A stretch of 64,000 bases of DNA, from contig NJBO01000003.1 in assembly GCA_005223075.1 (NCBI GenBank), positions 9,902 through 73,901 of the forward strand. Reading direction: 5' to 3'. Shown here one piece after another: positions 14,166 through 62,800 of this stretch (the stretch's first letter is position 1; every line of letters starts with the position of its first letter). The notes beneath the pieces are model-generated. The model had not been told where the DNA came from, ran no database searches, and saw nothing but the letters and a program-made list of their open reading frames with translations. The DNA comes from a candidate division TA06 bacterium B3_TA06 (lineage in GTDB: Bacteria > Hydrothermota > Tepidihabitantia > B3-TA06). The translations under genes and the position numbers were made by a program.

Positions 14166-14360
14166 CGTTAAATGTAGTGCGAACCTTCAGGTTCGCCAAG
14201 AAAGCAAGCGAGACTAAAGTCTCGCACTACATGCTAATCTGGAACAGGCAGGAGTGTCTGTTCTCTTAAATGTAATTGTATGGGCTGCTATTTGAAGTGC
14301 AGCAGTTTTCCAAAAGTCCGTTATCCTGTACCATATGCGGGCCGGTCTAAAGACCGGCCC
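14166..14360. repeat. REP-like hairpin cluster (TAAAG-loop family)
   Basis: atgtagtgcga...tcgcactacatg inverted repeat, gcgagactaaagtctcgc (14208-14225), gggccggtctaaagaccggccc (14339-14360); same family as hairpins around the IS200-like gene at 54790. Confidence 0.55.
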
Positions 14361-14404
14361 CTACGAAATCCCCCAAATATCAAGGCCCGATGTATTTCTC
14401 GTAG

Positions 14405-23247: not shown

Positions 23248-23316
23248 CGGTGATAGCTTCAAGTTATTAAGAGTAGGGGCACGGCATGCCGTGCCCCTAC
23301 AATTTAGGAGGAAAGG

Positions 23317-26745: not shown

Positions 26746-26809
26746 CCTTCCATGAAACTCGGAGGGGCAGATTTCTGCCCCTCCTCACAGATCACAAAAG
26801 GAGTAAGAG

Positions 26810-27253: not shown

Positions 27254-27326
27254 GGCATAATAGAAACCAAGCAGGGGGCGGGGTTACTCGCCCCCTCATA
27301 AACCTAAAACCTCAAAGGAGGAACAA

Positions 27327-27773
27327 ATGAGCAACTCCAAAAAACTCATAATCGCCCTCGCCGTGATCTTCTTGGTTGGGGCAACACCTGCCTTGGCCGA
27401 TCTCGATGGTATTTGGGAAGGCTATGGTAATGGCAGCTACTACTTACCTGACGGTAGCATCATCTACCCATGGCAAAGCTGGAACGGTACTGTCGAGAAT
27501 GGAGTCTTCAGCGGCTCCTGGGAAGATGACGAAGGCAACTCCGGCGGTTTCACAGGAGGCATCACATGCTTCTTCACTACTGTCCCACCCTCATATACGT
27601 TTGCCGGCTGCGAAGGAACCTGGACGTGGATTGACCCCAGCGGCTTAGAACCCATTGAACTAGGGAGCTTCTGGATGACGTTCAACGTAGACCTTGACAC
27701 CTGCTGGGGCGAATGGTTGCCTTACACTAATGCTCAGGGTGGAACCATGTGGGGCTGGAGGATAGGAGACTGA
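27327..27773 (+). CDS. Array paralog 3, subtype B
   Basis: 148 aa; YPWQSWNGTVENG ... CEGTWTWID ... GGTMWGWRIGD. Confidence 0.7.
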   Translation: MSNSKKLIIALAVIFLVGATPALADLDGIWEGYGNGSYYLPDGSIIYPWQSWNGTVENGVFSGSWEDDEGNSGGFTGGITCFFTTVPPSYTFAGCEGTWTWIDPSGLEPIELGSFWMTFNVDLDTCWGEWLPYTNAQGGTMWGWRIGD

Positions 27774-27846
27774 GGCATAATAGAAACCAACCAGGGGGCG
27801 GGGTTACTCGCCCCCTCATAAACCTTAAACCAAAAGGAGGAACAAA

Positions 27847-28302
27847 ATGAGTAACTCCAAAAAACTCCTCATCGCCCTGGCTGTGATACTTGCAGTCGGG
27901 GCAACGCCCCTCCTCGCACAACTTGAAGGACCGTGGGCAGGCAATGGCGAAGGAAGCTGCAAGACACCCACCGGAATCACTATCTACCCTTGGCAGGAGT
28001 GGGACGGCTTCGTGGAGAATGGAGCCTTCGACGGCAGTTGGTGGGACGGCGACAACGGCGGCAACTTTCACGGCGACATAATATCCATCAGCACCCCAGT
28101 CCCACCCGCGGAACCACATGACGTAGCATACTGTGAAGGCACCTGGACATGGGTAAATGACGAGGGGGAGGAGATATCTATGGGCCAGTTCTGGATGAAC
28201 TTTGACCTCCTCTACGGAACATGCGAAGGTGAATGGTGGCCTTGCAATCGCCCTGAGCCTTGGGGCCCGGGAATCATGTGGGGCTGGAGGATAGGAGACT
28301 GA
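27847..28302 (+). CDS. Array paralog 4, subtype B
   Basis: 151 aa; YPWQEWDGFVENG ... CEGTWTWVND ... IMWGWRIGD. Confidence 0.7.
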   Translation: MSNSKKLLIALAVILAVGATPLLAQLEGPWAGNGEGSCKTPTGITIYPWQEWDGFVENGAFDGSWWDGDNGGNFHGDIISISTPVPPAEPHDVAYCEGTWTWVNDEGEEISMGQFWMNFDLLYGTCEGEWWPCNRPEPWGPGIMWGWRIGD

Positions 28303-28375
28303 GGCATAATAGAAACCAAGCAGGGGGCGGGGTTACTCGCCCCCTCATAAACCTTAAACCTCAAAGGAGGAACAA

Positions 28376-28813
28376 ATGAGCACCCCAAAAAAAATCCTGC
28401 TAACCGCTTTGGCGGTGATCCTTTTACTAGGGGCCACGCCTATTGCCGCCCAGATCGCAGGAGTCTGGGAGGGCACCGGTAAAGGCGCAGCTTACCCGCC
28501 CTGCCACCTACCTATATATCCATGGCAGAAATGGATAGGCGAGATACCAAACTCTGAAGACGTCTTTTTCGGCGAGTGGAAAGACACCCTTGACAACCAC
28601 GGCAGATTCGAAGGCAAGCCTGCACCTTACTCCACTCCTGATGCGAAGGTGTTCAAAGGCTACTGGACCTGGGAAACCCCCGAAGGGATATTCAAAGGCG
28701 GCGAATTCACGATGACCTTTTACTTCTTGGAAGGCGAATGCAAGGGCACCTGGACATCCATCTGGCCTTCGCCGGGCAAGCTGGGAACCATGAGAGGCTG
28801 GAAGGTGCACTGA
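28376..28813 (+). CDS. Array paralog 5, subtype A
   Basis: 145 aa; PPCHLPIYPWQKWIGEIP ... GTMRGWKVH. Confidence 0.7.
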   Translation: MSTPKKILLTALAVILLLGATPIAAQIAGVWEGTGKGAAYPPCHLPIYPWQKWIGEIPNSEDVFFGEWKDTLDNHGRFEGKPAPYSTPDAKVFKGYWTWETPEGIFKGGEFTMTFYFLEGECKGTWTSIWPSPGKLGTMRGWKVH

Positions 28814-28880
28814 AGCATACAACCAACCAGGGGGCGGCCCTCCGCCCCCTATAAACCTTAAACCTCAAAGGAGGAACAAA

Positions 28881-29318
28881 ATGAGTAACCCCAAAAAACT
28901 CCTCATCGCCGCGCTTGCGGTGATCTTCCTGCTCGGCGCAACGCCCCTTGCCGCCGAGCTAGACGGGTTCTGGGCAGGAACTGGCACTGGCTGCTGCCAT
29001 CCAGAGTCCACCACCATCACCATATACCCCTGGCAGACATGGGACGGCTTCGTCGTGAACCACGAGATCTTTCACGGTGAGTGGCAAGATAGCTTAGGAC
29101 ACCAAGGCACCTTCGAAGGAAGAGTCGTCCAGATAGACTCAACCTATGCGGTTTTCGAAGGCACGTGGAGATGGACTGACCCCACCATACTCATAATCCC
29201 TCCTGTTATAGGCGAGTTCCATATGGACTTCGATCTTCTCACCCGCACCTGCCTGGGCGAATGGTTCTACCATGAGGACTACGGAACCATGCAAGGACAA
29301 AAACTGGAGACAAAATAA
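28881..29318 (+). CDS. Array paralog 6, divergent B-like
   Basis: 145 aa; GCCHPESTTITIYPWQTWDGFVVN ... GTMQGQKLETK. Confidence 0.7.
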   Translation: MSNPKKLLIAALAVIFLLGATPLAAELDGFWAGTGTGCCHPESTTITIYPWQTWDGFVVNHEIFHGEWQDSLGHQGTFEGRVVQIDSTYAVFEGTWRWTDPTILIIPPVIGEFHMDFDLLTRTCLGEWFYHEDYGTMQGQKLETK

Positions 29319-29393
29319 GAAAGAACAGACAAACCAACCAGGGGGCGGGGTTACTCGCCCCCTCATAAACCTTAAACCTCAAAGGAGGAACAA

Positions 29394-29834
29394 ATGAGCA
29401 CCCCAAAAAAAATCCTGCTAACCGGTTTGGCGGTAATCCTTTTACTAGGGGCCACGCCGCTTGCCGCCCAGATCGCAGGAAGATGGGAGGGTACTGGTAC
29501 AGGCGAAGCTTACCCGCCCTGCCACCCGCCTATACACCCCTGGCAGATCTGGATGGGCGAGATCCCGCTCACTCAGGATGTTTTCACAGGCGAATGGTGT
29601 GACGCGGACTGCAATCACGGCACCTTCAAGGGCGAGATAGCCCCTTTCTCAACTCCAGAGGAAGCATACTGTGAAGGTTATTGGACGTGGGATGATCCTT
29701 CCAGCCCGTCCATCATTGTAGGCCATTTCAAGATGACGTTCTACATCCTGGAAGGAATATGCGAAGGCACCTGGACATCCATCTGGCCATCGCCCAGCGG
29801 TCCCGGAACCATGAAAGGCTGGAAGATAGACTGA
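29394..29834 (+). CDS. Array paralog 7, subtype A
   Basis: 146 aa; PPCHPPIHPWQIWMGEIP ... GTMKGWKID; 5' end nearly identical at nucleotide level to paralogs 5 and 12. Confidence 0.7.
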   Translation: MSTPKKILLTGLAVILLLGATPLAAQIAGRWEGTGTGEAYPPCHPPIHPWQIWMGEIPLTQDVFTGEWCDADCNHGTFKGEIAPFSTPEEAYCEGYWTWDDPSSPSIIVGHFKMTFYILEGICEGTWTSIWPSPSGPGTMKGWKID

Positions 29835-29907
29835 GGTATACCTCGACAGACCATCAGGGGGCGGCCCTCCGCCCCCTTACAAACCTTAAACCAAAAGGAG
29901 GAACAAA

Positions 29908-30342
29908 ATGAGTAACTCCAAAAAACTCCTCATCGCCGCGCTTGCGGTGATCTTCCTCGCAGGGGCTACGCCTCTCGCCGCCCAGCTCGCAGGAGTCTGG
30001 GCAGGCACGGGCGAAGGCTGCTGCAGCCCTCCCGGAACTACCATCTACCCTTGGCAGACGTGGAAGGGTGAAATACCCAACAGCCAAGACGTGTTTTCCG
30101 GCAAGTGGTGGGACGCAGATAGCAACCGGGGCACCTTCCACGGAAAGATAATAATCTCCAGTGTCACCGAAGCATACTGCGAAGGTATCTGGAACTTAGA
30201 TGACCCTTCAGGGGCTTCAATCATTGGAGGTGATTTCAAGATGACATTCTACATCCTGGAAGGAACATGCGAAGGCACCTGGATATCCATCTGGCCCACC
30301 GCCTTACCCGCAACCATGAGAGGCTGGAAGGTAGAACCGTAA
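29908..30342 (+). CDS. Array paralog 8, A/B mosaic
   Basis: 144 aa; B-type signal peptide with A-type body (YPWQTWKGEIPNSQDVFSGKWWD ... TMRGWKVEP). Confidence 0.7.
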   Translation: MSNSKKLLIAALAVIFLAGATPLAAQLAGVWAGTGEGCCSPPGTTIYPWQTWKGEIPNSQDVFSGKWWDADSNRGTFHGKIIISSVTEAYCEGIWNLDDPSGASIIGGDFKMTFYILEGTCEGTWISIWPTALPATMRGWKVEP

Positions 30343-30406
30343 AGTCACAACCTAGGGGGCGGGCTTGTGCCCCCTCATAAACCTCAAACCTCAAAGGAGG
30401 AACAAA

Positions 30407-30856
30407 ATGCACAACTATAAAAAACTCATACTCGCCGCCCTGGCAGTTATCCTGCTGCTGGGAGCCACTCCGGCGTTCGCTCAGCTGGCCGGAACCTGGG
30501 AGGGCACTGGTAGGGGCGAAGCTTACCCGCCCTGCCACCCTCCTATACACCCCTGGCAAAACTGGATAGGCGAGATCCCGAACTCTCAGGATGTGTTTTT
30601 CGGCGAATGGTGGGACTCGGACTGCAATCACGGCACCTTCAAGGGCGAAATAGCCCCTTTCTCCACTCCAGAGGAAGTATACTGTGAAGGCGAATGGACA
30701 TGGTACGACCCCACAGGCTCCTCTCACCAACCAATAGTCGGCGGCAAGTTCAAGATGACGTTCTACATCCTGGAAGGAAGATGCGAAGGCACCTGGACCT
30801 CCATATGGCCATCGCCCAGCGAGCACGGAACCATGAGAGGCAGGAAGGTACACTGA
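30407..30856 (+). CDS. Array paralog 9, subtype A
   Basis: 149 aa; start placed at ATG 30407 after SD aaaggagg; ends GTMRGRKVH. Confidence 0.7.
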   Translation: MHNYKKLILAALAVILLLGATPAFAQLAGTWEGTGRGEAYPPCHPPIHPWQNWIGEIPNSQDVFFGEWWDSDCNHGTFKGEIAPFSTPEEVYCEGEWTWYDPTGSSHQPIVGGKFKMTFYILEGRCEGTWTSIWPSPSEHGTMRGRKVH

Positions 30857-30925
30857 ACCTTAACGCCGAGCGGGGACGGGTTTCCATCCCCGCTCGGGAT
30901 AAACCTTAAACCAAAAGGAGAAGCA

Positions 30926-31354
30926 ATGAGTAACTCCAAAAAGCTAATGCTCACCGCCTTGGCGGTGATCTTTCTGATCGGAGCGACGCCTCTCTTCGCC
31001 GATCTCGACGGCATCTGGGAAGGCTACGGCGAAGGAAGCTGCGAGACACCCGCTGGAACCATCATCTACCCCTGGCAAACCTGGAACGGAACCGTTGATG
31101 AATACGGGTACTTCTCCGGCGAGTGGGAAGACTCGGACGGCAATCAAGGCACCTTCGAAGGCTGCATGGCGTCCCTGAACCCCCCAGTCTGCCCGGGGGT
31201 ATGGACATGGAGAGACGATTCGAGTCTCGAACCCATCGAGATGGGCCTATTCCAGATGGTCTTTTACGAGGTCCAAGGAACATGCAACGGCGAATGGTGG
31301 CCGTACTCTGGCGCTCAGGGTGGAACCATGTGGGGCTGGAGTATAGGAGACTAA
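30926..31354 (+). CDS. Array paralog 10, subtype B
   Basis: 142 aa; YPWQTWNGTVDEYG ... GGTMWGWSIGD. Confidence 0.7.
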   Translation: MSNSKKLMLTALAVIFLIGATPLFADLDGIWEGYGEGSCETPAGTIIYPWQTWNGTVDEYGYFSGEWEDSDGNQGTFEGCMASLNPPVCPGVWTWRDDSSLEPIEMGLFQMVFYEVQGTCNGEWWPYSGAQGGTMWGWSIGD

Positions 31355-31425
31355 GGCATAATAGAAACCAACCAGGGGGCGGCCATCCGCCCCCACTTAA
31401 ACCCTAAACCTCAAAGGAGGAACAA

Positions 31426-31875
31426 ATGAGTAACCCCAAAAAAATCCTCATCGCCGCGCTTGCGGTGATCTTCCTCGCAGGGGCGACGCCGCTTCTTGCC
31501 CAACTCAACGGTACATGGGCGGGCGAAGGAGAAGGCGTTTGCTCTCCGCCTCCCCCTATACCTACCGACTTCCCCATCTATGCTTGGCAGAACTGGAAAG
31601 GTCTGGTTGAGGATAATGAAGTCTTCTACGGCGAGTGGTACGATAACCGCTGTAACAACGGCACCTTCAAAGGCGAGATCGTATTCGTAACTCCCGAGGA
31701 TGCATACTGCGAAGGCGAGTGGCACTGGTTCGACGAACGCTACGACCCTCCGCGTGTCTACTACATGGGACCGTTTTCGATGAAGTTCAAGCTGGAAGAA
31801 GCAATATGCTACGGTGAATGGCGGACTTACTACAGTAATGAGAGCGGAACCATGAAAGGAGAAAAGATAGACTGA
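31426..31875 (+). CDS. Array paralog 11, divergent
   Basis: 149 aa; FPIYAWQNWKGLVEDNEVFYGEWYD ... GTMKGEKID. Confidence 0.7.
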   Translation: MSNPKKILIAALAVIFLAGATPLLAQLNGTWAGEGEGVCSPPPPIPTDFPIYAWQNWKGLVEDNEVFYGEWYDNRCNNGTFKGEIVFVTPEDAYCEGEWHWFDERYDPPRVYYMGPFSMKFKLEEAICYGEWRTYYSNESGTMKGEKID

Positions 31876-31953
31876 GGATATACCGGGAAACCGGCTAACC
31901 CAGGGGGCGGGCTTCCGCCCCCTGATAAACCCTAAACCTCAAAGGAGGAACAA

Positions 31954-32400
31954 ATGAGCACCCCAAAAAAAATCCTGCTAACAGGTTTGGCGGTGATCCT
32001 TTTACTAGGGGCCACGCCGCTTGCCGCCCAGATCGCAGGCACATGGGAAGGCACCGGAACCAGCTGCTGCTGTCCACACCCGGGCACGATCATCTACCCC
32101 TGGCAGGCGTGGGTAGGTGAGATCCCCAACTCCCAGGACGTCTTCACCGGCGAGTGGAAAGACAGCCTCGACAACCGCGGCACATTCAAGGGCGAAATCC
32201 TCTGGATCAGCACCACCGTCGCCATCGCCAGAGGTTCCTGGTACTGGTTCGATCCTACCGGTCCCAGTCACGAACCGGTCTACGGAGGCGACTTCGAGAT
32301 GAAGTTCTACGTCTACGAGAGGGAGTGCACCGGCACCTGGACATCCATCTGGCTATCGCCCAGCGAACACGGAACCATGAGAGGCAGAAAGGTACACTAA
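31954..32400 (+). CDS. Array paralog 12, subtype A
   Basis: 148 aa; CCCPHPGTIIYPWQAWVGEIP ... GTMRGRKVH. Confidence 0.7.
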   Translation: MSTPKKILLTGLAVILLLGATPLAAQIAGTWEGTGTSCCCPHPGTIIYPWQAWVGEIPNSQDVFTGEWKDSLDNRGTFKGEILWISTTVAIARGSWYWFDPTGPSHEPVYGGDFEMKFYVYERECTGTWTSIWLSPSEHGTMRGRKVH

Positions 32401-32466
32401 ACCTAAAGCCGAGGGGGGCGCAAACCCGTCCCCCTCGGGATGAACCTTAAACCAAAAGGAGAAGCA

Positions 32467-32922
32467 ATGAGTAACTCCAAAAAGCTAATGCTCACCGCCT
32501 TGGCGGTGATCTTTCTGATCGGAGCAACGCCGCTCTTCGCAGAACTCGACGGCATCTGGGAAGGCTACGGCGAAGGAAGCTGCGAGACACCCGCTGGAAT
32601 CATCATCTACCCCTGGCAAACCTGGAACGGCAGCCTGGAGTCATGGCTCTTCACCGGCCACTGGCAAGACTTGGACGGCAGCTCCGGCGGCTTCCAGGGG
32701 GCCGTCATATCCCTCGCCAAATCCGTTGAACCGCCTTACCATACGGTTGCTCACTGCGAAGGAACCTGGACGTGGATGGATCCCAGCGGCTTAGAACCCC
32801 TCGAAATGGGTCCCTTCAATATGGAGTTCAATCTGGACATTGACACCTGCTGGGGCAACTGGTACTCCTATTCTAGCCCCGGAATTGGCGGAACCATGTG
32901 GGGCTGGAGGATAGGAGACTGA
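32467..32922 (+). CDS. Array paralog 13, subtype B
   Basis: 151 aa; start placed at ATG 32467; first ~45 codons and upstream intergenic region nearly identical to paralog 10. Confidence 0.7.
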   Translation: MSNSKKLMLTALAVIFLIGATPLFAELDGIWEGYGEGSCETPAGIIIYPWQTWNGSLESWLFTGHWQDLDGSSGGFQGAVISLAKSVEPPYHTVAHCEGTWTWMDPSGLEPLEMGPFNMEFNLDIDTCWGNWYSYSSPGIGGTMWGWRIGD

Positions 32923-44157: not shown

Positions 44158-44245
44158 AGTGCAATGACACAGTCATTGCAGTCCAAAAGATTTTATGGAG
44201 TGCAACGAGCGTCTCGTTGCTTGCGACAACACGGTTGTCGCACTC
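44158..44245. repeat. REP-like palindromic cluster upstream of RAYT gene
   Basis: tgcaatgacacagtcattgca and ggagtgcaacgagcgtctcgttgcttgcgacaacacggttgtcgcactcc (outer stem enclosing two inner hairpins). Confidence 0.7.
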
Positions 44246-44262
44246 CAGAATAGCGTTGTATA

Positions 44263-44817
44263 ATGAGCGATGATTTAATCTACAAGCAGCACAAACACAA
44301 TCCACCTCATCTGTTCATCCCCAAAGCCAAATACTTCATCACCGCTTCTACATACCAGAAAAAGCCTTTTCTAAGTTCTCATGAGAGCAAATCGCGTCTC
44401 CTGGAATCCATAATTAAAGGATGCGATAAATCCAACTGGTTATTGGAAGATTGGGTTATACTCGACAATCATTATCACCTGATGCTGCAAGCCCCTGAGG
44501 AGGATCCTGATTTATCCAAAATGATCAGTGAAATCCATCGCTTTACCGCTCTCTGGATAAAGAAAAATGCCTTGGAAGCGAAATCGGCTAAAAGAATCTT
44601 CTGGAACTACTGGGATAGATGTATTACTCACGAACGGTCTTACTTTGCCAGACTAAACTACATTTACTTCAACCCGGTAAAGCATGGATATGTCCCAAAT
44701 CCTGAAGATTATCCGCATGGGAGTTATTATTACAGAATAAAGACTGAAGAAGAACGCCTCAAAAAACTACAACAAGATTATCCTTGGGGTCGTGTCAATG
44801 TCAATGACGATTTCTAG
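44263..44817 (+). CDS. REP-associated tyrosine transposase (RAYT, IS200-like Y1 HUH family)
   Basis: 184 aa; HUH motif NHYHLML and YIYFNPVKHGYV region; flanked on both sides by REP-like palindromes. Confidence 0.7.
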   Translation: MSDDLIYKQHKHNPPHLFIPKAKYFITASTYQKKPFLSSHESKSRLLESIIKGCDKSNWLLEDWVILDNHYHLMLQAPEEDPDLSKMISEIHRFTALWIKKNALEAKSAKRIFWNYWDRCITHERSYFARLNYIYFNPVKHGYVPNPEDYPHGSYYYRIKTEEERLKKLQQDYPWGRVNVNDDF

Positions 44818-44910
44818 CTTGACGCAACAACACGGTTGTCGTACTCCAAAAACCCACTCTGGAGTGCAACGAGCGCCTCGTTGCATGCAACAACACGGTT
44901 GTTGCACTCC
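44818..44910. repeat. REP-like palindromic cluster downstream of RAYT gene
   Basis: cttgacgcaacaacacggttgtcgtactcc and ggagtgcaacgagcgcctcgttgcatgcaacaacacggttgttgcactcc. Confidence 0.7.
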
Positions 44911-53760: not shown

Positions 53761-53835
53761 TCTTCTCAGCCACAGACCGTTGAAGTTACGGAGTTCTAAC
53801 CTGTTTCCTTTCCGATGCTTAGCGACAACTCAGGG

Positions 53836-53863
53836 TTGACACCCTCCTTAAAAAGGTTATAAT
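53836..53863 (+). promoter_or_regulatory. Consensus promoter TTGACA-N16-TATAAT upstream of the RRM protein gene
   Basis: ttgaca 53836-53841, tataat 53858-53863; ~45-nt leader with SD. Confidence 0.55.
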
Positions 53864-53908
53864 ATAACGTTCGAGGTGCCACCAACGGCACCAATAAGGA
53901 GTAAATAG

Positions 53909-54193
53909 ATGCGTTTATTCGTCGGAAACCTTCCCCGCTCCTACGAGGAGGAAAAGGTACGCGAGATCTTCGCTGAACACGGGGAAGTAAGTAAGGTAGC
54001 GGTTCCCAGAGATCGCTACACTAACGCCCCTCGCGGTTTTGCTTTTGTAGACATGCCGAATGACGAGGAGGCCAAGGCGGCCATTGAAGCCACTAACGGA
54101 ACAGAGCACGAGGGCCGCCAGATTAGAGTAGAGGAAGCCCGCCCTCCACGCGAACGCGGCGGCTTCTCCAGAGGCGGTGGAAACCGCTGGTAA
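53909..54193 (+). CDS. RRM-type RNA-binding protein
   Basis: 94 aa; RNP-2 LFVGNL and RNP-1 RGFAFVDM; Gly/Arg-rich C-terminus. Confidence 0.85.
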   Translation: MRLFVGNLPRSYEEEKVREIFAEHGEVSKVAVPRDRYTNAPRGFAFVDMPNDEEAKAAIEATNGTEHEGRQIRVEEARPPRERGGFSRGGGNRW

Positions 54194-54257
54194 AACAAAA
54201 AGATACCTTTCTCGTCATTCTTGACAGTTAGTTGATCGAGATCGAGAGAAAGTGATA

Positions 54258-54290
54258 GGGGCCGACTTCAGGTCGGCCCCTATCTTTTAT
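54258..54290 (+). terminator. Intrinsic terminator after the RRM gene
   Basis: ggggccgac-ttcag-gtcggcccc followed by tatcttttat. Confidence 0.65.
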
Positions 54291-54339
54291 ATCACAGGGC
54301 ACCCTGGATCGACCAGCCAACTGATCAACTAAGCGGGGA

Positions 54340-54367
54340 TTGACAGGGAAGCTTTGTCCCATATACT
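54340..54367 (+). promoter_or_regulatory. Putative promoter TTGACA-N16-TATACT
   Basis: ttgaca 54340-54345, tatact 54362-54367; upstream of the small Lys-rich ORF. Confidence 0.45.
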
Positions 54368-54435
54368 TCTACCCTAAGGAGGCAAGCTTACTGCCTCTAT
54401 GTGAGGTAAACGCTCTTTAATGTAATGGAGGAAGC

Positions 54436-54537
54436 ATGGGAAAGGCAAAAGCCCCTATAAAGAAGAAAACCGCCAAGGCGACCAAAAGGACCTCTAGGAA
54501 GAAAAAAGCCGGCGGCAAAAAGAAGCGCAAGAAGTAA
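54436..54537 (+). CDS. Small lysine-rich basic protein (33 aa), hypothetical
   Basis: Not in ORF track; SD ggagg 5 nt upstream; MGKAKAPIKKKTAKATKRTSRKKKAGGKKKRKK. Confidence 0.3.
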   Translation: MGKAKAPIKKKTAKATKRTSRKKKAGGKKKRKK

Positions 54538-54589
54538 TTTGGTCTTGAGCCCATCGGGTTGTAAGCTCTGGTGGTCAGTGAGATTAGTA

Positions 54590-54723
54590 GCGCAGACCTT
54601 TAGGTCCGCCTTTATTTTTAGCGAGGCTAATACCCTATGAGCGCATAAAGCGCTCAAGGGGCACGCTGAGCCTCGCACTACATGCTGTGTGCTATACATG
54701 TAGTGCGGGACTTTAGTCCCGCT
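54590..54723. repeat. REP-like hairpin cluster upstream of IS200-like gene
   Basis: gcagacctttaggtccgc, ccctatgagcgcataaagcgctcaaggggcacgctg, cgcactacatg...catgtagtgcg, gcgggactttagtcccgc. Confidence 0.65.
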
Positions 54724-54789
54724 AAATAAAACTCAACGAAAAGGAAAGGTTAGGTTGACAAAAAACATGGTCTGATTTACTCTAACCCA

Positions 54790-55248
54790 ATGAGGAAGAA
54801 GCGAATACGCCTCAAGTCTTTCGATTACCTGGGTGCTTACAGATACTTCGTGACCATCTGCACGCATAACCAGAAGCAGGCATTCACCAGCGAGGGGCGC
54901 GTAAGAACCGTCTCTGACATTCTGAAAGAAACCGCTGAGCAGGAAGGATTCACGGTCTGGGCCTGGTGTTTCATGCCGGATCATTTGCACATCCTTGTCG
55001 AAGGTGTTAATGAGAAATCCGATCTCCGCCGGTTCATGAAGATATTCAAACAGAAAAGCGGCTATCAGTGGAAGCAGATTGAAGGCGAAAAGTTATGGCA
55101 GGAAGATTACTTCGAGCGCATCCTGCGGCGGGAAGAAACCACCCCAAAGGTCATAGAATACATTCTCAACAACCCTGTGCGGCGTGGTTTGGTTTCTTCT
55201 CCGGAGGAGTACCCCTTCTCCTATTCTCTTTTAGACAACAACATGTAG
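54790..55248 (+). CDS. IS200-like Y1 HUH transposase (RAYT-type)
   Basis: 152 aa; HUH motif DHLHILV, YILNNPVRRGLV region; flanked by REP-like hairpins; stop codon lies within the conserved catgtag REP terminus. Confidence 0.7.
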   Translation: MRKKRIRLKSFDYLGAYRYFVTICTHNQKQAFTSEGRVRTVSDILKETAEQEGFTVWAWCFMPDHLHILVEGVNEKSDLRRFMKIFKQKSGYQWKQIEGEKLWQEDYFERILRREETTPKVIEYILNNPVRRGLVSSPEEYPFSYSLLDNNM

Positions 55249-55441
55249 CGCGGGACTTCAGTCCCGCAGCGAGTCTAAAGACTCGCTCTACACGAATATA
55301 ATCTGGAATTGTGATCAGTCAAGGTAGAACATGTAGCGTGAACCCCAGAGTGCCCCCTTTGGACATTAGGTTCGCAGCGAGTCTAATACCCTATGAGCGC
55401 ATAAAGCGCTCAAGGGATACGCTGAGACTCGCACTACATGT
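55243..55441. repeat. REP-like hairpin cluster downstream of IS200-like gene
   Basis: gcgggacttcagtcccgc, gcgagtctaaagactcgc, ccctatgagcgcataaagcgctcaagggatacgctg, tcgcactacatg. Confidence 0.65.
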
Positions 55442-55463
55442 CTTATTCCACAAGAGAAGCAAT

Positions 55464-57251
55464 TTACTCCGGTATCGTAGCGATGATCTTGGGATCGACC
55501 TTGTACTGTTTCAGGAATTCGCGCCGCTTGAACTTCATGGTCTTGACCCAGTTACGGTAGACATCCATCTTCTTATTCTTCTCAAAGAAAAGGATAGGAT
55601 TGAGGATTTCTGCCGGCACCTTTTTGAGCAAATCCGCGTTCTCCTTAGCCTCCACGTCCACAATCTCGTAGCCGAAGTCAGGATCAAGCTGCCAGGCTAT
55701 CTTACCGGCAAGCATCCCCTCAAGCATCGCTGACGAGTGAGGAATCTTGACCTTGAGTGCTTTGCCCGCCTCAACGTCATTCGCATCGCCGCCGATATAG
55801 CCGGTGTTCATGAGCCAGGTCTCGAGATTTGGTATCTGGGCACTAAGCTCTGCAAACCGGACCGCCTGAAGACCCATCGCCTTTGGGAAGAAGGGCTGGG
55901 TGAAGGGCGAGCGTGTTCTGCCGCGCTCCTTGCCCGCTGCAGAGGTCTTGGTGGTCTCGCCCAACATAAAATAGGCCGCTGCCTGTTCGGTAGAGACAAA
56001 GCGCACGATGCCGGGCATGGCCGCGTCCGGTCCCTCGTCCCGGTTCAGGATGCCCATCGAACGCACGGACGGAATATCCCGCAAATCCGCCGCACCCTCG
56101 ATACGCGACATGGGGATCACCGAACGACCGTTCTGGGTCCAGACCAAAAAATCCCAGCCGTCTTCCGGGATGCCATAGGCATCCACTTTATCCTCAATAT
56201 TGACCTCCCCACTGATGTAGGCGTCCACGTTTTTCTGCAAAGCGCCGGTGATGATCAGGTAGTCGCGCAAACGCTTGACTTCTTCAGGAGTAAGACGTTC
56301 CTTGGAGAAATCGAACCCGCCCTCAGCATCGGTGTAGACGTTCTCTACCCAGGCCGCGGGATCGAGGGTGCCTTTGTAGATAATCGGTTCCGATTCCTCC
56401 TTAAGCCCCCAGGTCTTGGCGAACGCGCCATTCTCAGTGATTGTAATCTTCCCTCCCGGCCACAGGCACACCATGTCGTCCTGGATCGGTTGGGTCAGCT
56501 CGCCCTGCTTGGAGAATGTGGTGGTGGTCTTTCCCGTTCCTGAAAGCCCCATCACGGTCATGGTGATGCGCTCGCCGCGGATGGTCACCGCCTTGGCCCC
56601 GGCGTGAAGCACCAGGCCGCCGCGCTGATAAACGTAGTCGTTAAGCATTCTGAGAGCCCCCTTCTTGGACTCGCCGAAGTAGTCCGCACCGATCACGTAT
56701 GTTGTGTAGTTCTCTAGGTCTACAATAATGGCCTGCCCGCCCGGCATGTCGGGAAGTGGAAACTCGGGAACCATCACCACCCGGATCACCGGTTTGTACT
56801 CCTCGGCAAGCTGCTCGGGCGTCTCTACCGCATCGCGCGGGAAAGAAAGAATCTGCTGCATGCCGGCAACGTTCGCGCACGGCAGGGTGTAAAGCCACTG
56901 GATAGGGAAGCGCCGCTCGTCCAGCCCGTAGTAGCCCTGGATCTCGATCAGCCTGCCCTGCAGTTCCACATACTCCCACACCCGGCTCAGGATGCGTTCG
57001 GCGCGATCAGGCTCGATCACCTTGCTCGAATAAAGATGCGCATCGGGCTCAGGAGCGATGACGTAGGTGTATTGGGCTTTCCGCGCCTTGTTACGCGCGA
57101 TCTTCGAGATGTTACCGTATTTCGTAACATAGCAGGCCGGTGTGTGTTCCAACGCCAGCCGGCGCAGGTCGGCTTGCGACGGGTTCTTGATGTAAGCTAC
57201 GTTGAACGGATGCGGCTCCTCCTGGGGCGGCACCCGCTTGACCTTCGACAT
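55464..57251 (-). CDS. pckA: Phosphoenolpyruvate carboxykinase (ATP-type)
   Basis: 595 aa; kinase-1a motif GLSGTGKTT and PEPCK-like ATP-binding regions; SD aggagg. Confidence 0.7.
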   Translation of the reverse strand: MSKVKRVPPQEEPHPFNVAYIKNPSQADLRRLALEHTPACYVTKYGNISKIARNKARKAQYTYVIAPEPDAHLYSSKVIEPDRAERILSRVWEYVELQGRLIEIQGYYGLDERRFPIQWLYTLPCANVAGMQQILSFPRDAVETPEQLAEEYKPVIRVVMVPEFPLPDMPGGQAIIVDLENYTTYVIGADYFGESKKGALRMLNDYVYQRGGLVLHAGAKAVTIRGERITMTVMGLSGTGKTTTTFSKQGELTQPIQDDMVCLWPGGKITITENGAFAKTWGLKEESEPIIYKGTLDPAAWVENVYTDAEGGFDFSKERLTPEEVKRLRDYLIITGALQKNVDAYISGEVNIEDKVDAYGIPEDGWDFLVWTQNGRSVIPMSRIEGAADLRDIPSVRSMGILNRDEGPDAAMPGIVRFVSTEQAAAYFMLGETTKTSAAGKERGRTRSPFTQPFFPKAMGLQAVRFAELSAQIPNLETWLMNTGYIGGDANDVEAGKALKVKIPHSSAMLEGMLAGKIAWQLDPDFGYEIVDVEAKENADLLKKVPAEILNPILFFEKNKKMDVYRNWVKTMKFKRREFLKQYKVDPKIIATIPE

Positions 57252-57621
57252 CTATATCCTCCTGGGATTCAGCTCAAGCCTCTTACAATACGTATCTTAC
57301 TCAGGGAAACGGGAATTGCAAGTGGTCGGCGTCGTGATTACTCTACTGTTTAAATCGGCGCCAACTCGTCAGGTTTGAGTGGCACTCGTCACCAAAAAGA
57401 TGGTCAAATGCTGGTCAAAAGCTGGTCAAAAGCTACCCAAAAGATGGACAAAAGCGCGACTGCGTCGCAATTACAGATTGAAGATTCAAGATTGAAAGAT
57501 TTAAAGATAGCTCCGCAAGCGTCGCCCTCCGGTGCAAATATCAAAATGCAAAGCAAAGTTAAGGGGGCTGACAGCCGTCGGCCGTGAGCTGTAAGCTGTT
57601 TGCCGTGAGCTCCTAGGGGGG

Positions 57622-57654: not shown

Positions 57655-59493
57655 ATGAGTTTAAGAAGAGAGCTTTTATTTCTCATTTCACTTTCATTTG
57701 GGCTCTTCATTTTTTGTGGGGAAAGGGAACTGACACCCCAAGAGATTTTTAGGTCAGATTCGTTTTATACCGAGGCTTTGCGTTATGAAAAATTTGGAAA
57801 TTTGGATAGTGCAAGGGTTTTATGTGAAAACGCCTTAAGAATAAACCCTAAACATTACGATGCTCAGAGAAAATTAGCTGCAATTTACTTCGTTACTCAA
57901 GATTACCCCCAGGCTGAAGGGACATACCGTAGTTGTGTTGAATTAAAGCCAGATGATTTTTGGACTCAGTATAACCTAGGCTTGGCCTTACTTTACCAAG
58001 GTAAATTCTCTGAAGCCGCATTAGCAATTCGGAAGGCCATCGAGATTGACTCTACCCGCATTTTTGCATTTATTCACCTTACTGGTGCTTTAATTGGTAA
58101 AGGCGATGTTGTTAACGCAGAAATCGAAATAAGAAAAGCCATGAGTATTGAGCCGCAAAACGTAGATTTTCGACTTCATCATGCCTGGATATTATTTGTA
58201 AAACAAGATTTCGATAGAATGGAAGAAGAGGTTGATAATGTTTTGCTCTCTAATCCAGATATTACGTTTGCCCATTATTTGCGAGCTATAATTTGGTTAG
58301 TCAGAAATAAACTAGATAGAGCTGAGGTCGAATTCAAAAAAGCTATCGAATTGGAGCCAAATTTACCTCAGTTACACGCTCTACTTGGAGGGGTGAAACT
58401 TAAAACGGGTAATTTGGGGGAAGCGGAAGAAGAATTAAAACGGGCGTTGGAGTTGGGTGATACTCACCCTTCAACATACAATAATCTTGCTACCCTTTAT
58501 GAAAGGCAAGGTCGAACCCAAGAAGCAGAGGAAACATACATAAAAGCCATTGAATTAAGCAGTGATGACCCTACGCCTTACAACAATTTAGCATTTCTTC
58601 TATTTTACAAAGGTGAGTTAGACAGTTCATCAGTTGTTTTTTCAAAAGCCTTGACTTTAGCGAAAGAGGGCGAAGCACCCAGCATAAAAGATATTGCAGA
58701 GGATTTTACTAAAGTGTTACTCATTAAGGGCTGGGAAAATTGTATATTAGGCGATTTAGATGAAGCAACACTTGAGATTGATTCAGCAATTTCAGTGCTT
58801 AATAATTACGAAGTGCGTTCAAGAGGGAGTGAGAAGATACTTAAAGTTAATGCTAATACTCTGAGAGGTATAGTTTATCTTAAACAAAGAAAACCGGGCC
58901 AAGCTACCGAAAAGTTCGCCAAAGCCTTGGAAAACGATCCGAGAGATACTGTGGCCAGATATAACCTTGCCTTAGCTTATTTAATGGCTGGCCGTTTCGA
59001 TAATGCAGAATTGGCAGCCTCAGCTGCTATTTATCTAGCTGGTGAAAAAGGGTACCCGGAAGGAGAAAGTCTCTTAACTTACATTAAGAAAAAGAGGGAG
59101 GAAAGAAATGCAGGGTTTCGTTTTCATTGGATTCAATTAGGTGCCCTTGTACTAGTCGTCGGTTGGCTTGCCGCTTCTATGTGTGTTTTCTTTCATAAAA
59201 AAATAGGGAAAACTAAAAAAGGTCAGGAATTCAGAAGGCGATGGGCATATACATTTATGTTGATTTGGATTGCTTTGGCATTCATTTTCTTTATCTTCCC
59301 ATATACGAAGATTGTCACTTTCCCTACTGGCGGACAAGTCGAATTAGACCAAGATAGAATAAGACTCCCACAAGAAATAAGCCCTGATTTCTCACGTATT
59401 GCACAGCCCCAAATAATGACTTTTCCTGAAGAACCAAAATTCCAAATCGATATGGTTCTCGATTTAAGGAGTTACGCACCCCAATCTCCTTGA
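57655..59493 (+). CDS. TPR-repeat protein with C-terminal transmembrane segments
   Basis: Start placed at ATG 57655; multiple 34-aa TPR-like repeats; two hydrophobic helices near C-terminus; AT-rich relative to surroundings. Confidence 0.7.
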   Translation: MSLRRELLFLISLSFGLFIFCGERELTPQEIFRSDSFYTEALRYEKFGNLDSARVLCENALRINPKHYDAQRKLAAIYFVTQDYPQAEGTYRSCVELKPDDFWTQYNLGLALLYQGKFSEAALAIRKAIEIDSTRIFAFIHLTGALIGKGDVVNAEIEIRKAMSIEPQNVDFRLHHAWILFVKQDFDRMEEEVDNVLLSNPDITFAHYLRAIIWLVRNKLDRAEVEFKKAIELEPNLPQLHALLGGVKLKTGNLGEAEEELKRALELGDTHPSTYNNLATLYERQGRTQEAEETYIKAIELSSDDPTPYNNLAFLLFYKGELDSSSVVFSKALTLAKEGEAPSIKDIAEDFTKVLLIKGWENCILGDLDEATLEIDSAISVLNNYEVRSRGSEKILKVNANTLRGIVYLKQRKPGQATEKFAKALENDPRDTVARYNLALAYLMAGRFDNAELAASAAIYLAGEKGYPEGESLLTYIKKKREERNAGFRFHWIQLGALVLVVGWLAASMCVFFHKKIGKTKKGQEFRRRWAYTFMLIWIALAFIFFIFPYTKIVTFPTGGQVELDQDRIRLPQEISPDFSRIAQPQIMTFPEEPKFQIDMVLDLRSYAPQSP

Positions 59494-59528
59494 CTTCCCT
59501 CTTTAATCTCCGCCAAATCACTTAACTA

Positions 59529-59564
59529 CCCCACAACTCCGCTTCGCGTAGTCGCGGGGACCCC
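59529..59564 (-). repeat. R1 hairpin repeat (reverse orientation)
   Basis: ccccacaactccgcttcgcgtagtcgcggggacccc. Confidence 0.65.
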
Positions 59565-59612
59565 AAGGGGATCGTGCTGCATATGAGATCGCCACGGTCG
59601 CGATGACGTAAT

Positions 59613-59697
59613 CCCCTCCCCCTTAATCCCCCTACCCTATGGGGTGCAGTAAAATTGGCACCCCAAGGGGCACGCTGTCCACAAAGGGAGGGGGAAC
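59613..59697 (+). repeat. R2 ~85-bp MITE-like element
   Basis: cccctcccccttaatccccctaccctatggggtgcagtaaaattggcaccccaaggggcacgctgtccacaaagggagggggaac; a degenerate second copy follows at ~59720-59810. Confidence 0.7.
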
Positions 59698-59865
59698 TGT
59701 AGCCCTCACCCCAACCCTCTACCCTATAGGATACCCTATGAGATGCAATAAAGTTAGCATCTCAAGGGGCACACTGTGCAGTAAAGTAGGTATCCCACGG
59801 GGCACGCTGAGATCTGCCCCTACATCTTTATCCCTTTGAGCTTAAAATCGCTTGCGTGGGGTGGA

Positions 59866-62800
59866 TTATAGTTTTCCGTGCACGCGGACCCTGCGCACGC
59901 AGGGAATAGACTTCAAACGCTCTATAAGCTCTGCCGAAGGGCTTACCCTTATATCCTTGCTCCGTATACGGGTGCGTTCGTTATCATCTTCGCCGTTACT
60001 CAAGTTTATGTAAAAGGCGCAGCGTCCCGGAAACTCCTCCGTCAGTTTGCGTATCTTTAGGAGATTCTCCCTGGAGACTTCTTGTTCGTCAAGTTCCACG
60101 ATCATCTTATTCAGTCTTGCCCGTGCGGCGCTGAACGGGATTATCTCTTCACTGAAGAGCTTTGCCCTTGTATCATCCTCACTAACCGCTGCGCGTCCCT
60201 TAACCAGTATGGGTTCGTCTGAGCGAAGGATCGAACGGTGCTGCTCGTAGAGCCTTGCGAACACGAACACGTCTATCTCACCGGTGAAGTCGCGCAGGGT
60301 TATAATTGCATATTCACGTCCATTCTTGTCGCGCTTTGCTTTGCGAGCCGCAACTGCCCCGCCAACAACAATGGTTTTACCGTCCATACGTTCGTCTATC
60401 TCTTCGATTGGAGATACATCAAGCGCTTCGTAGAGGTCCTGGTAGTCCTCCAACGGGTGCCCTGACAGGTAAAAACCGAATGCGTCCTTCTCGTAGCTTA
60501 AAAAATCGGTGGGCTTGAACTTCTTTTGTTTGCGCCTCTCTGACTTTTCCTTGATACCTTGTGTATCGGCGAAAAGCCCTTGTTGTTTCTCAAGTATCAG
60601 CCCGCGCTTGTTCCCCAGTCGTGAGATCTCGTCGGGAAGATGAGCTATCAGAAGCTCCCGGTCCGGGTCGATTGAATCGAAGCAACCGGCTTTGATCAGG
60701 AACTCCGCACACTTGCGGTTCACCGTTCCGTGGGTGCGGGTAAGGAAGTCTCGCATGTCGGAAAAAGGCTCTTTTGAGTTCTCTTGCTCGATAAGCTCCG
60801 CCGCGCCTCTCCCCACGTTCTTAATAGCCCCGATGCCGAAACGGATTGCATCCCCTTGGATTAGGAACTCATAACCGCTTTTGTTTATCTCCGGCGGAAG
60901 GATCTTAATCCCGAACTTGCGGGCATCGGCGATGAACTGAGCCATCTTTGCTTCCGAATGTCCCATCTCGTTGGTCAAAAGGGCGGTGAAGAACTCAAGC
61001 GGGTAGTTGGCCCTAAGATATGCGGTGGCGTAGGAGATATGGGCATATCCGGCGGAGTGCGACTTGTTGAATCCGTAGCCCGAGAAGGGCGCGATCTGGT
61101 CGAAGATAGCCTTAGCTACCTTCTCAGGTACCCCCTCTTTCTTTGCCCCTTCGAAGAACTGCTGCTTCATCTCGGCCATGAGTTCTGGTATCTTCTTTCC
61201 CATGGCGCGGCGCAGGTGGTCGGCCTGAACGTAAGAAAATCCGGCGATAGCTCGGGCGGTTTGCATCACCTGCTCCTGGTAGATGAACATACCGTGGGTT
61301 CCGGCAAGCACCGGTTCCAGACGCGGATGCAGGTAGGTGATCTCGCTTTCTCCGTGTTTGCGGCGGAAGAACTCATCCAGATCAATGTTGGCCAGTGGTC
61401 CGGGTCTGTAGATTGCGATAACCGCGATGATGTCCTCGATCTGGGTAGGACCAAGTTTTCTCAGAATCTCACGCATACCCCTGCTTTCCAGCTGGAAGAT
61501 GCCAGTGGTCTCGGCGCGTTGCAACAGCTGGAAGGTTTTTTTATCATCCAGGGGAAGATTTTTGGTGTCGATTTTTTGACCGTCTTGGTTGATGAGCTTC
61601 TCGCTCATCTTGATCACCGACAGGGTTCTCAGCCCCAGGATGTCCATCTTTAAAAGACCGATTGAGTCCACGGCCTTCATGTCGAACTGGGTCGAGATAC
61701 CGTCGTCTGCAGCCTTGTAGAGGGGGATGAACTCGGTCAATGGCTCGGGAGTAATCACCACGCCTGAGGCGTGGATTGATGCGTGGCGCGATATGCCCTC
61801 AAGCTTCTGAGCGACGTTAAACAGTCGCTCGTAGAGAGGATCGGTCTTGATGGCCTCGGTAAGTTCCTTCTGGGTGTTGCGTGCCTCACGAAGACTTGCG
61901 TTAAATGGGATGAGCTTTGCCAGCCTGTCGACCTCACCGAATGGGATGTCCAGCGCCCTTCCAACGTCGCGAACCGCGGCCTTGGCCTTCATGGTGTCGA
62001 AGGTGATGATGCGTGCGACGTTCTCCTGGCCGTAGCGCTCGTGGATATAGTCAATGACCCTATCGCGATCCTCGTCCGCGAAGTCTATGTCGATATCGGG
62101 AAGGGTTATGCGGTCAGGGTTCAGGAAACGCTCGAATATCAGTCCGTAGTGGATGGGGTCAAGCGCGGTGATGTCCAGTGAGTAAAGAACCAGGCTCCCA
62201 ACCGCCGAACCCCGTCCTGGCCCCACAGGCACACCGGTCTTCCGTGCGTAGTCAACGATGTCTTTCACGATCAGGAAGTACCCGGCGAAGCCAGTCTTGC
62301 GGATGATAGCAAGCTCATGCTCAAGACGTTGCGCGTATATTTTTTTCTCCATAGGACACTTCTGGCGGCAGCCAGAGGAAGCGAGTTCCCTCAGATAGGA
62401 CATCGAAGAGTCGAACTCCTTGGGGATAGGGTAGCGCGGCAGTTTGAAGTTGCGGGTATCCAGGTCAATGCTCACCATGCAGCGCTCGGCTATCTTGACC
62501 GTGTTTTCAAGAGCTTCAGGCAAATCCTTGAAAGCTTCGGCCATCTCCTTGGGCGATTTGAAGTACATCTCGTTTGACTCGAATCGCATCCGGTCAACAT
62601 CGTCCACCTTCTTCCCGGTCTGGATTGCCAAGAGGACATCATGGGCGTCGGCGTCCTCGCGGCTAAGAAAGTGACAGTCGTTGGTGGCCACCACATCCAC
62701 ACCATCTTCTCGTGCCAGATCAACGATGAGTTTAATCATATCGGCACTTTCCGGCAGCCCCAGGTTCTGCACCTCAATGAAGAAGTTCTCAGGCCCGACG

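Follow-up and report, generated by a model that had tools for sequence, protein, structure and literature searches.

A probable REPtron in a 64-kb bacterial DNA stretch: GTAG-tagged hairpins around a RAYT gene, with a small element apparently nested in their loops

We analysed a 64-kb stretch of contig NJBO01000003.1 (hereafter the window, meaning the whole stretch), in which an open reading frame (ORF) at 54790-55248 on the forward strand encodes a 152-aa protein. The region around this ORF is very probably a REPtron, that is, a single RAYT (REP-associated tyrosine transposase) gene at a fixed site, flanked by its cognate repetitive extragenic palindromic (REP) hairpins, which we termed U units. 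This reading was drawn from the protein family and its catalytic residues, the anatomy of the repeats and their excess over chance, the conserved position of the gene, and the gain and loss of REPs between relatives. Copies of a second repeat, termed the R2 core, were found in the loops of some U units, and these copies are likewise gained and lost between relatives.

Results

The RAYT gene and its protein

The 152-aa protein matched the Pfam family Y1_Tnp (PF01797) with an E-value of 2.9e-13. It passed the NCBIfam RAYT equivalog model (REP_Tyr_transpos, NF047646) with 110.9 bits against a cut-off of 80 and failed the IS200 equivalog model (NF033573), scoring 37 bits where 55 are needed; the same split was seen in the orthologs and in the more distant homologs that were tested. 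The HUH motif is H65-L-H67 and the catalytic tyrosine is Y124, located within YILNNPV, and an alignment of 15 homologs revealed that H65, H67 and Y124 (as Y124-I-x-x-N-P-V) were invariant. The closest solved structure was that of E. coli TnpA-REP (4ER8; E = 1.6e-7, 34.5 bits), to which the HUH motif and the tyrosine aligned, and the protein also weakly resembled 2XM3 and 2F4F, the ISDra2 and IS608-type transposases. The gene was found as one copy in the 64-kb window, and the sole other Y1 gene there was 26% identical. Judged by its profile scores, the ORF is a RAYT gene and not an IS200-type insertion sequence. A preliminary description made from the letters of the window had presented a 152-aa HUH protein as "IS200-like/RAYT"; the protein is there and its RAYT character was borne out, but the IS200-like part was not: the IS200 model was failed, no second copy was found in the window, and relatives carry the gene at the same site.

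A promoter-like sequence, TTGACA-N17-TACTCT, was read by eye on the + strand at 54755..54783. Its equivalents were TTGACA-N17-TAATCT and TTGACA-N16-TATTCT in L001 and L004, respectively, two of the related loci described below. A consensus promoter scan did not call the site because the -10 element is weak. Since the sequence ends 6 nt 5' of the ATG, a leaderless or near-leaderless RAYT mRNA would be implied.

GTAG-tagged hairpins around the gene

The U units share the consensus (C)ATGTAG[T/C]-GCGNNNN-TT[T/C]A-N'N'N'N'CGC, in which the stem is 7 bp long and the loop 4 nt (TTTA or TTCA; TAAA or TGAA on the opposite strand). The four middle stem positions varied between copies and were always complementary. 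The string CATGTAGTGCG, which consists of the head of each unit and the first three stem bases, occurred six times in the window with at most one mismatch, compared with 0.52 expected, and all six copies were within 14171-14233 or 54674-55440. The head-plus-hairpin pattern gave 11 matches with up to three mismatches, compared with 2.04 expected, and 8 of these 11 were U units. GTAG-tagged perfect hairpins likewise numbered 11, compared with 1.39 in shuffles. The enrichment of hairpins near the transposase gene was thus well above chance.

Seven U units are located within 856 bp around the gene and one pair at 14.2 kb, with none elsewhere in the window. The head ATGTAG[T/C] was present in six of these nine units and degenerate in three. 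Three units lie upstream and four downstream of the ORF, within 205 nt and 192 nt, respectively, and in both orientations. The pairs are mostly tail-to-tail with the GTAG heads pointing outward, the spacers in the four window pairs being 11, 1, 1 and 11 nt. The two arms had different stems in every pair (e.g. GCGAACC with GCGAGAC, and GCGGGAC with GCGAGTC); the single-stranded DNA is therefore predicted to fold as a three-way junction, in which the heads pair and each arm forms its own hairpin. The DNA fold z-scores of the U structures ranged from -4.3 to -7.1.

In the upstream pair, the left arm is U1 (54585..54609, + strand), a degenerate unit with the head TAGTAGC, a stem of GCAGACC/GGTCCGC containing one mismatch, and the loop TTTA. 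An 11-nt spacer (54610-54620) connects it to the right arm, U2 (54621..54684, - strand), which has the stem GCGAGGC/GCCTCGC, the head CATGTAGT and a TAA|A loop split by a 38-nt R2 core. In L001, the pair located 3' of the RAYT gene includes the U2 stem, there with its TAAA loop uninterrupted. U3 (54697..54722, + strand) is a single unit with the structure CATGTAGT-GCGGGAC-TTTA-GTCCCGC. On the downstream side, U4 (55242..55267, + strand; CATGTAGC-GCGGGAC-TTCA-GTCCCGC) overlaps the RAYT stop codon, and the final ATG-TAG (Met-stop) of the ORF comes from its head. U4 is arranged tail-to-tail, with a 1-nt spacer, with U5 (55269..55294, - strand; GCGAGTC-TAAA-GACTCGC), which has the decayed head TCTACACG. 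Next to U5 is a 35-nt segment (55295-55329) that is unique in the window and has a close copy upstream of the RAYT gene in locus L252. The second downstream pair consists of U6 (55330..55375, + strand), with the head CATGTAGC and the stem GTGAACC/GGTTCGC, and, after a 1-nt spacer, U7 (55377..55440, - strand), with the head CATGTAGT and the stem GCGAGTC/GACTCGC. The U6 loop is a 24-nt remnant of an R2 core (CAGAGTGCCCCCTTTGG..ACATTA) in the usual polarity, and the TAA|A loop of U7 is split by a 38-nt R2 core (55387-55424).

The preliminary description had quoted three hairpin strings as one family with a shared 5-nt TAAAG/CTTTA loop. All three strings exist (gagcgcataaagcgctc at 54639-54655 and 55395-55411, gcgggactttagtcccgc at 54705-54722 and gcgagtctaaagactcgc at 55269-55286), but they do not form one family, as gagcgcataaagcgctc comes from the R2 core, where it makes up the inner hairpin around a 5-nt ATAAA loop. 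A scan for the shared 5-nt loop found none, and the 4-nt loop definition was therefore adopted; the G/C that had been counted in the loop is the first stem pair. The strings catgtagtgcg and cgcactacatg are also present, not as the inverted termini of one element but as the conserved 5' GTAG head of every unit, which the tail-to-tail pairing of the units places in both orientations. The hairpin family was correctly set apart from that of the other RAYT gene (44263-44817), the product of which is 26% identical and which is flanked by hairpins of the GGAGTGCAACGAGCG type.

A short module, (g/c)aatataatctggaa(t/c)tgtgatc..tcaaggtag, accompanied U units at 55294-55329 in the window, 45-80 in L252 and ~835-865 in L253. 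It was located downstream of the RAYT gene in the window and in L253, and upstream in L252, and its fragment ctaatctggaac followed the 14.2-kb U pair (14234-14250). The module may be part of an extended mobile unit.

Conservation of the site in related loci

Eight related loci (L001-L006, L252 and L253) were fetched from metagenome contigs; their RAYT proteins were 74-93% identical to that of the window, the range for close homologs at this site being 73-93%. The RAYT gene occupied the same chromosomal site in all eight, and no empty site was present among them. The gene order is His_Phos_1, a 385-aa protein, an RRM protein, a 32-aa Lys-rich peptide and RAYT, followed by the phosphoenolpyruvate carboxykinase (PEPCK) gene on the opposite strand. 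The 32-aa peptide gene was directly 5' of RAYT in L001-L003, L005-L006 and L253, the contigs of L004 and L252 ending before it, and PEPCK was 3' of RAYT in seven of the eight loci, with a tRNA-like sequence in its place in L253. An 88-aa gene call in L005/L006 had suggested a RAYT pseudogene; this was found to be a gene-caller artefact, and the ORF is intact at 148 aa. The 32-aa ORF itself (54437-54535; MGKAKAPIKKKTAKATKRTSRKKKAGGKKKRKK) is extremely Lys/Arg-rich, was called as a gene and was conserved in the six contigs that reach it. The seryl-tRNA synthetase (SerRS) of the window was 80% identical to a "candidate division WOR-3" protein, and the U repeats and R2 loop inserts recurred in Ca. 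Stahlbacteria metagenome-assembled genome (MAG) contigs; by these matches, the host lineage appears to be WOR-3/Stahlbacteria-like.

All of the RAYT orthologs were flanked by U units, and the number (4 to 7), order, stems and spacers of the units varied among them. The degenerate U1 recurred in L001-L006 and L253, and the upstream composite U2 was common to the window, L001-L003, L005-L006 and L253. L001 contained one clean downstream pair, in which GCGAACC and GCGAGGC stems are separated by tttattttta, and the U units of L004 and L252 had no loop inserts. A 147-nt block of the window (55294-55440), which bears the second downstream pair, was absent from L252, L004 and L001. In these three loci, the last unit before PEPCK had an intact TAAA loop, and in two of them (L252 and L004) its stem was GCGAGTC, as in U7.

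We then compared the RAYT gene with its neighbour. Between the window and L252, the nucleotide identity was 95% for RAYT and 82% for the PEPCK 3' end, whereas between the window and L005 it was 72% for RAYT and 87.5% for the PEPCK 3' end (window 55464-55934). This pattern suggests that the RAYT cassette may have been exchanged between lineages by recombinational replacement at a constant site.

Dispersed U units and related hairpin families

The U pair at 14171..14233 (no strand assigned) lacks a transposase gene and reads AATGTAGT-GCGAACC-TTCA-GGTTCGC, an 11-nt spacer, and GCGAGAC-TAAA-GTCTCGC-ACTACATG. It was not found in the same helicase-serS intergenic region of L250 and L251, which have the same synteny and 78% SerRS identity, nor upstream of serS in L248 and L249. 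In L247 (94% SerRS identity), a hairpin of another family, V, was present in the opposite orientation in place of the U pair. The hairpins at 14166-14360 had been regarded as consistent with trans-mobilised REP-like elements without a transposase, and the U pair at 14171-14233, missing from the helicase-serS region of the relatives, was as expected from this; the hairpin at 14339-14364, however, belongs to the V family and not to the U family.

To place the U units in a wider context, we used two collections of sequences. The first consisted of 852 kb of related metagenome DNA, which was the surroundings of at least 132 pattern matches to the R2 core and was thus chosen for R2 cores; it contained 22 strict U units and 47 V units, compared with 0 and 0 in reversed-sequence controls. 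The second was a scan of genome contigs, one genome per species, with the pattern ATGTAGYGCGNNNNTTYANNNNCGC, in which the four middle stem positions were left free. It gave at least 134 matches, and among the matches listed, 91 were complementary at all four positions, compared with ~0.5 expected by chance. At least 22 stem cores were found, in Chloroflexota, Acidobacteriota, Desulfobacterota, Elusimicrobiota, Ca. Stahlbacteria and others. Among 120 genome loci listed with the U motif, 117 had no RAYT within the fetched stretch (up to 8 kb) and 3 had one. In a Dehalococcoidales MAG, a homologous RAYT gene and a U pair on its downstream side are 23 nt apart, an arrangement like that of the window.

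Other GTAG hairpin families were also observed. The V hairpin at 14339-14364 has the structure GTAG-GGGCCGGTC-TTTA, and the family consensus is GTAG-GGGCCGRYC-TTYA. The X family is a palindrome with GTAG heads at both ends, GTAGGGGCACGG-CATG-CCGTGCCCCTAC, and empty copies of it are located at 10551-10574 and 23273-23300 of the window. In related metagenome contigs, R2 cores were present at the apex of both V and X. After the RRM-protein gene (54254-54284) lies a related GTAG/ATAG hairpin with ATAG heads and a T run, which scored as a bidirectional terminator. Two further hairpins (6536-6560 and 10187-10211), with the pattern (A/T)TGTGG(C/T)-GCAG(A/G)CT-CTCC-AG(T/C)CTGC, immediately follow the ORFs whose ends are at 6529 and 10172; with their GTGG head, they may represent one more small family of repeats or terminators.

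An element nested in hairpin loops

The R2 core is 38-45 nt long and consists of TA-CCCTATG, a variable inner stem of 5-6 bp with its loop, and CAAGGG-GCACGCTG. It folds into an 11-bp stem with a bulged A, followed by the 3' tail GCACGCTG. The 38-nt guest in U2 (54631..54668, + strand) reads TACCCTATG-AGCGC-ATAAA-GCGCT-CAAGGGGCACGCTG. R2 cores were found in three of the seven flanking U units, namely U2, U7 and, as a decayed copy in the same polarity, U6. The insertion point in U loops was TAA^A, always in one polarity and with no target duplication. Unoccupied hairpins with the same stems adjoined the orthologous genes (GCGAGGC in L001; GCGAGTC in L004 and L252).

Further R2 cores were present at 4799-4843, 10364-10408, 59633-59677 and 59720-59809 of the window, and the ccctatg...caaggggcacgctg module within them was located at 4799-4841, 10366-10408 and 59635-59809. 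The ccctatg-hairpin-caaggggcacgctg flank that had been noted as shared with an R2 element does therefore occur at other repeat copies; "modular repeats built from common parts" fits as far as the shared module goes and is more precisely described as nested insertion of the R2 core in a REP tetraloop. The 45-nt R2 core at 59633-59677 was exactly absent at the orthologous site of L005 (15278). The flanks of this empty site were identical over 28 and 53 nt, with no duplication and the junction TTAATCCCCC^TCCAC. On the strength of this clean indel, R2 appears to be a discrete element nested in U loops and separate from the U family. In the window, R2 occurred about once per 8-9 kb, and it is thus more abundant there than the REPs of the RAYT itself. 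An R2 core apparently nested in another was seen at 59720-59809, and L005 shows the same arrangement.

The metagenome scan gave at least 132 pattern matches to the R2 core, at least 110 of them with an inner hairpin. Among the matches listed, 20 occupied the tetraloop of a U or V hairpin, without exception in the form T-R-A|TA...CTG|A and with the host GTAG on the opposite strand; these 20 copies represented 10 host stems and 11 inner stems in 14 combinations. Others of the matches listed were at the centre of the X palindrome, GTAGGGGCACGG-CA^TG-CCGTGCCCCTAC, or in the loop of a fourth hairpin family, W (CCCCTCCCCC...GGGAGGGGG), and the W composite is what the preliminary description had called the R2 element. 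Sixteen more W hosts were empty. The R2 core was thus found at the apex of four host hairpin families, U, V, X and W.

A tblastn search with eight Y1 proteins against all fetched loci, including the 852 kb, found only the ortholog of the window RAYT near R2, and a dedicated R2 transposase was accordingly set aside as a candidate. A scan of viral contigs for the R2 core gave 0 matches, and a phage origin is therefore not supported. An Rfam search at E <= 1 of 53800-55800 and 59480-59880 gave only two sub-threshold chance matches, and the whole window gave none at gathering thresholds; these null results ruled out a known RNA family.

Other features of the window

The other RAYT gene (44263-44817) also passed the RAYT model, and its flanking hairpins are unrelated to U. 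This gene and its hairpins (~44195-44905) were absent from the related contigs L135 and L170, and in L135 the surrounding sequence joined through a single GGAGTGCAACGAGCG-type hairpin copy. Given this absence, the other REPtron is an indel between close relatives, unlike the RAYT at 54790-55248. The window also contains a tandem array of ~13 paralogous ORFs (26209-32922) of ~142-178 aa with a spacing of ~510 nt. A conserved TAAACCTYAAACCTCAAAGGAGG ribosome-binding region precedes each ORF, and a 76-nt terminator-like block recurs at several of the junctions; the three array members tested had no Pfam match. Finally, two near-identical arrays of an 11-nt tandem repeat, AAAAGCTGGTC, with ~5.4 copies each, are located 53 kb apart at 4435-4493 and 57395-57455. 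Their apparent helical-phase spacing resembles that of iterons or a multi-site regulator binding region.

Discussion

Comparison with known systems

We compared the region with the known partnerships of Y1 enzymes and hairpins. The E. coli REPtron (TnpA-REP, 4ER8; PMC3333891, PMC3479197) shares with it a Y1 HUH enzyme with a YIxxNPV tyrosine helix, inverted REP pairs on either side of the gene, a GTAG located 5' of the hairpin foot, and REPs dispersed elsewhere. Some differences were present. The protein similarity is 34.5 bits; E. coli REPs are 30-40 nt long and imperfect, with a mismatch needed for binding, whereas the U hairpins are short and perfect (7 bp, tetraloop); the U units have one unpaired nucleotide (T/C) between GTAG and the stem, unlike E. 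coli REPs; and E. coli K-12 contains ~580 REPs, whereas the U family is far smaller.

In hairpin design, the U units resemble the GTAG-tagged REP superfamily (Di Nocera et al. 2013, PMC3733652). Its members end in GTAG and have stems of 5-13 bp and short, T/C-rich loops; they form tail-to-tail dimers, including heterodimers whose stems differ, show compensatory changes in the stems, may overlap the 3' end of a transposase gene, and come in families of 20-100 units. U units agree with this definition in their GTAG terminus, stem length, short loop, and head-to-head or tail-to-tail dimers including heterodimers. The U consensus was not found in the sections consulted, and the WOR-3/Stahlbacteria host lineage is not among the GTAG-repeat phyla that the paper names. 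In the palindrome cases described there, the GTAG REP is the guest, whereas in the window a GTAG REP hosts the nested element. Taken with the other literature (PMC3333891, PMC3116915, PMC5581495), the gene and its U units fit the REPtron/GTAG-REP description, including the heterodimers, the compensatory stems and the 3' overlap.

The REPIN-RAYT systems of Pseudomonas (PMC3116915, PMC5581495) are similar in having two inverted REPs with a short spacer as the apparent mobile unit, and a RAYT present as one copy at one site with housekeeping-like behaviour. They differ in that the arms of the window pairs are not copies of each other and only the heads pair, so there is no single long hairpin typical of REPINs, and in that the window RAYT allele is incongruent with the neighbouring gene. 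The IS200/IS605 elements (IS608 and ISDra2 TnpA) belong to the same protein superfamily and use single-stranded hairpin substrates. Their hallmark is insertion without target duplication in one orientation, and the R2 core behaves likewise; however, the window gene scores below the IS200 cut-off and is not mobile together with its flanks, and R2, with its one hairpin, lacks both a gene and a conserved 5' target sequence. REP hairpins are also the specific integration sites of certain insertion sequences (IS1397, ISKpn1 and ISPpu9/IS110 family; PMC1525189, PMC12288879). IS1397, ISKpn1 and ISPpu9 are kilobase-sized and encode their own transposase, whereas the R2 guest is a non-coding sequence of 38-45 nt that also enters three other hairpin families at their apex.

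Proposed mechanism

TnpA-REP requires GTAG and cleaves single strands (PMC3333891). We infer by analogy the catalytic activity of the window protein, the mobilisation of REPs by it, and the type of enzyme that would move R2. By that analogy, the RAYT would bind a single-stranded DNA hairpin together with its 5' GTAG (PMC3333891), and would cut and rejoin nearby through Tyr124, with a 5'-phosphotyrosine link and an HUH-bound metal ion. REP pairs would occasionally be copied or moved to new intergenic sites, such as 14171-14233, while the RAYT gene itself would stay put. As a second layer, the R2 core would have been inserted precisely into REP tetraloops at TAA^A in a single polarity.

Three observations weigh against the REPtron reading in this form. 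There is one dispersed U pair in 64 kb, and about one unit per 39 kb in the related DNA, which was itself selected for R2; with so few dispersed units, the U family is small. The U stems are perfect, unlike the substrate of E. coli TnpA-REP, which requires a stem mismatch for binding (PMC3333891), and the recognition rules may thus differ. The RAYT allele is also incongruent with the adjacent PEPCK gene in the comparisons with L252 and L005, and strict vertical descent of the RAYT is therefore not established.

Alternative explanations

An autonomous IS200/IS605-family insertion sequence, in which the hairpins are left and right subterminal structures and CATGTAGTGCG / CGCACTACATG are the ends, would account for the Y1_Tnp superfamily membership, the weak similarity to 2XM3 and 2F4F and the presence of hairpins on both sides of the gene. 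We regard it as highly improbable, because the protein falls below the IS200 cut-off (37 against 55) and passes the RAYT model, there is one copy in 64 kb, and the gene is at the same site in relatives at 74-93% protein identity with no empty site in eight orthologous loci. The flanks, moreover, are 4 to 7 repeated units of varying number and order among orthologs, not one left and one right end, and U units stand alone at 14171-14233. It is also very unlikely, if slightly less so, that the U hairpins are ordinary terminators or mRNA-stabilising stem-loops that are conserved for RNA function and lie beside a transposase gene by coincidence. They are extragenic and lie between the convergent RAYT and PEPCK genes, REPs have known roles in termination and mRNA stability (PMC3733652), and the related hairpin at 54254-54284 scores as a bidirectional terminator with a T run. 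A consensus terminator scan, however, called none of the U units, which occur in both orientations as pairs; their conserved 7-8-nt head ATGTAG[T/C] lies outside the stem, has no role in intrinsic termination and matches the GTAG of TnpA-REP (PMC3333891); and homologous RAYT genes of another phylum have the same head, loop and GCG...CGC frame beside them. The units could both have a structural RNA role and be mobile.

For the nested module, we tentatively propose, at somewhat less than an even chance, that R2 is an independent, ultra-small, non-coding mobile element of 38-45 nt (TACCCTATG, a variable hairpin and CAAGGGGCACGCTG), which would enter the single-stranded apexes of other repeat hairpins, including the REPs of this RAYT, in fixed polarity and without target duplication, and would be moved in trans by a Y1/HUH-type enzyme. 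This RAYT is a possible mobiliser because it was the only such gene found adjoining R2 copies in the loci fetched. The absence of target duplication, the fixed polarity and the preference for single-stranded apexes would fit HUH/Y1 chemistry. A weaker but still credible candidate, which we consider unlikely, is that U2, U6 and U7 represent an old composite REP variant that spread whole, and not repeated insertions of R2. REPs with long self-complementary loops that coexist with short-loop members are described in PMC3733652, no transposase gene other than this RAYT adjoins R2 copies in the loci fetched, and composite U2 was inherited as a unit, being common to the window and six related loci (L001-L003, L005-L006 and L253). 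Against a composite origin, the window (59633-59677) and L005 differ cleanly by the 45 nt of R2 alone, between identical flanks and without duplication; sixteen further W-type hosts are empty; the U and V loops, among the matches listed, show 14 combinations of 10 host and 11 inner stems at the same position and polarity; R2 occupies the apex of two further host families unrelated in sequence; and the last REP before PEPCK in L252 and L004 has the GCGAGTC stem of U7 with an intact loop.

Implications

The RAYT and U-unit finding extends the RAYT/GTAG-REP partnership to an uncultivated WOR-3/Stahlbacteria-like lineage, and one REP design (ATGTAG[T/C], a GCG-framed 7-bp stem and a TT[T/C]A loop) is common to distant phyla together with a RAYT clade. 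Although of use for annotation, this finding is what current knowledge would predict. As to the nesting, REPs lodged in other palindromes, such as GTAG-23 of T. roseum with hundreds of unoccupied targets, are described in PMC3733652, and our literature search on nested REP insertions found only these palindrome-embedded REPs. In view of them and of the REP-targeting insertion sequences (PMC1525189), the nesting of R2 would be a variant rather than a new principle, if an unusual one, in that the guest is non-coding, ~40 nt long and has clean empty sites in four host families. If the proposal for R2 is true, R2 would be a parasite of a parasite, and its insertion would split, and perhaps inactivate, the REP substrates of the RAYT. 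With its filled and empty sites, fixed polarity and apex preference, R2 offers a compact natural system for target choice by single-strand-specific recombinases, and it prompts the question of whether populations of REPs have parasites of their own.

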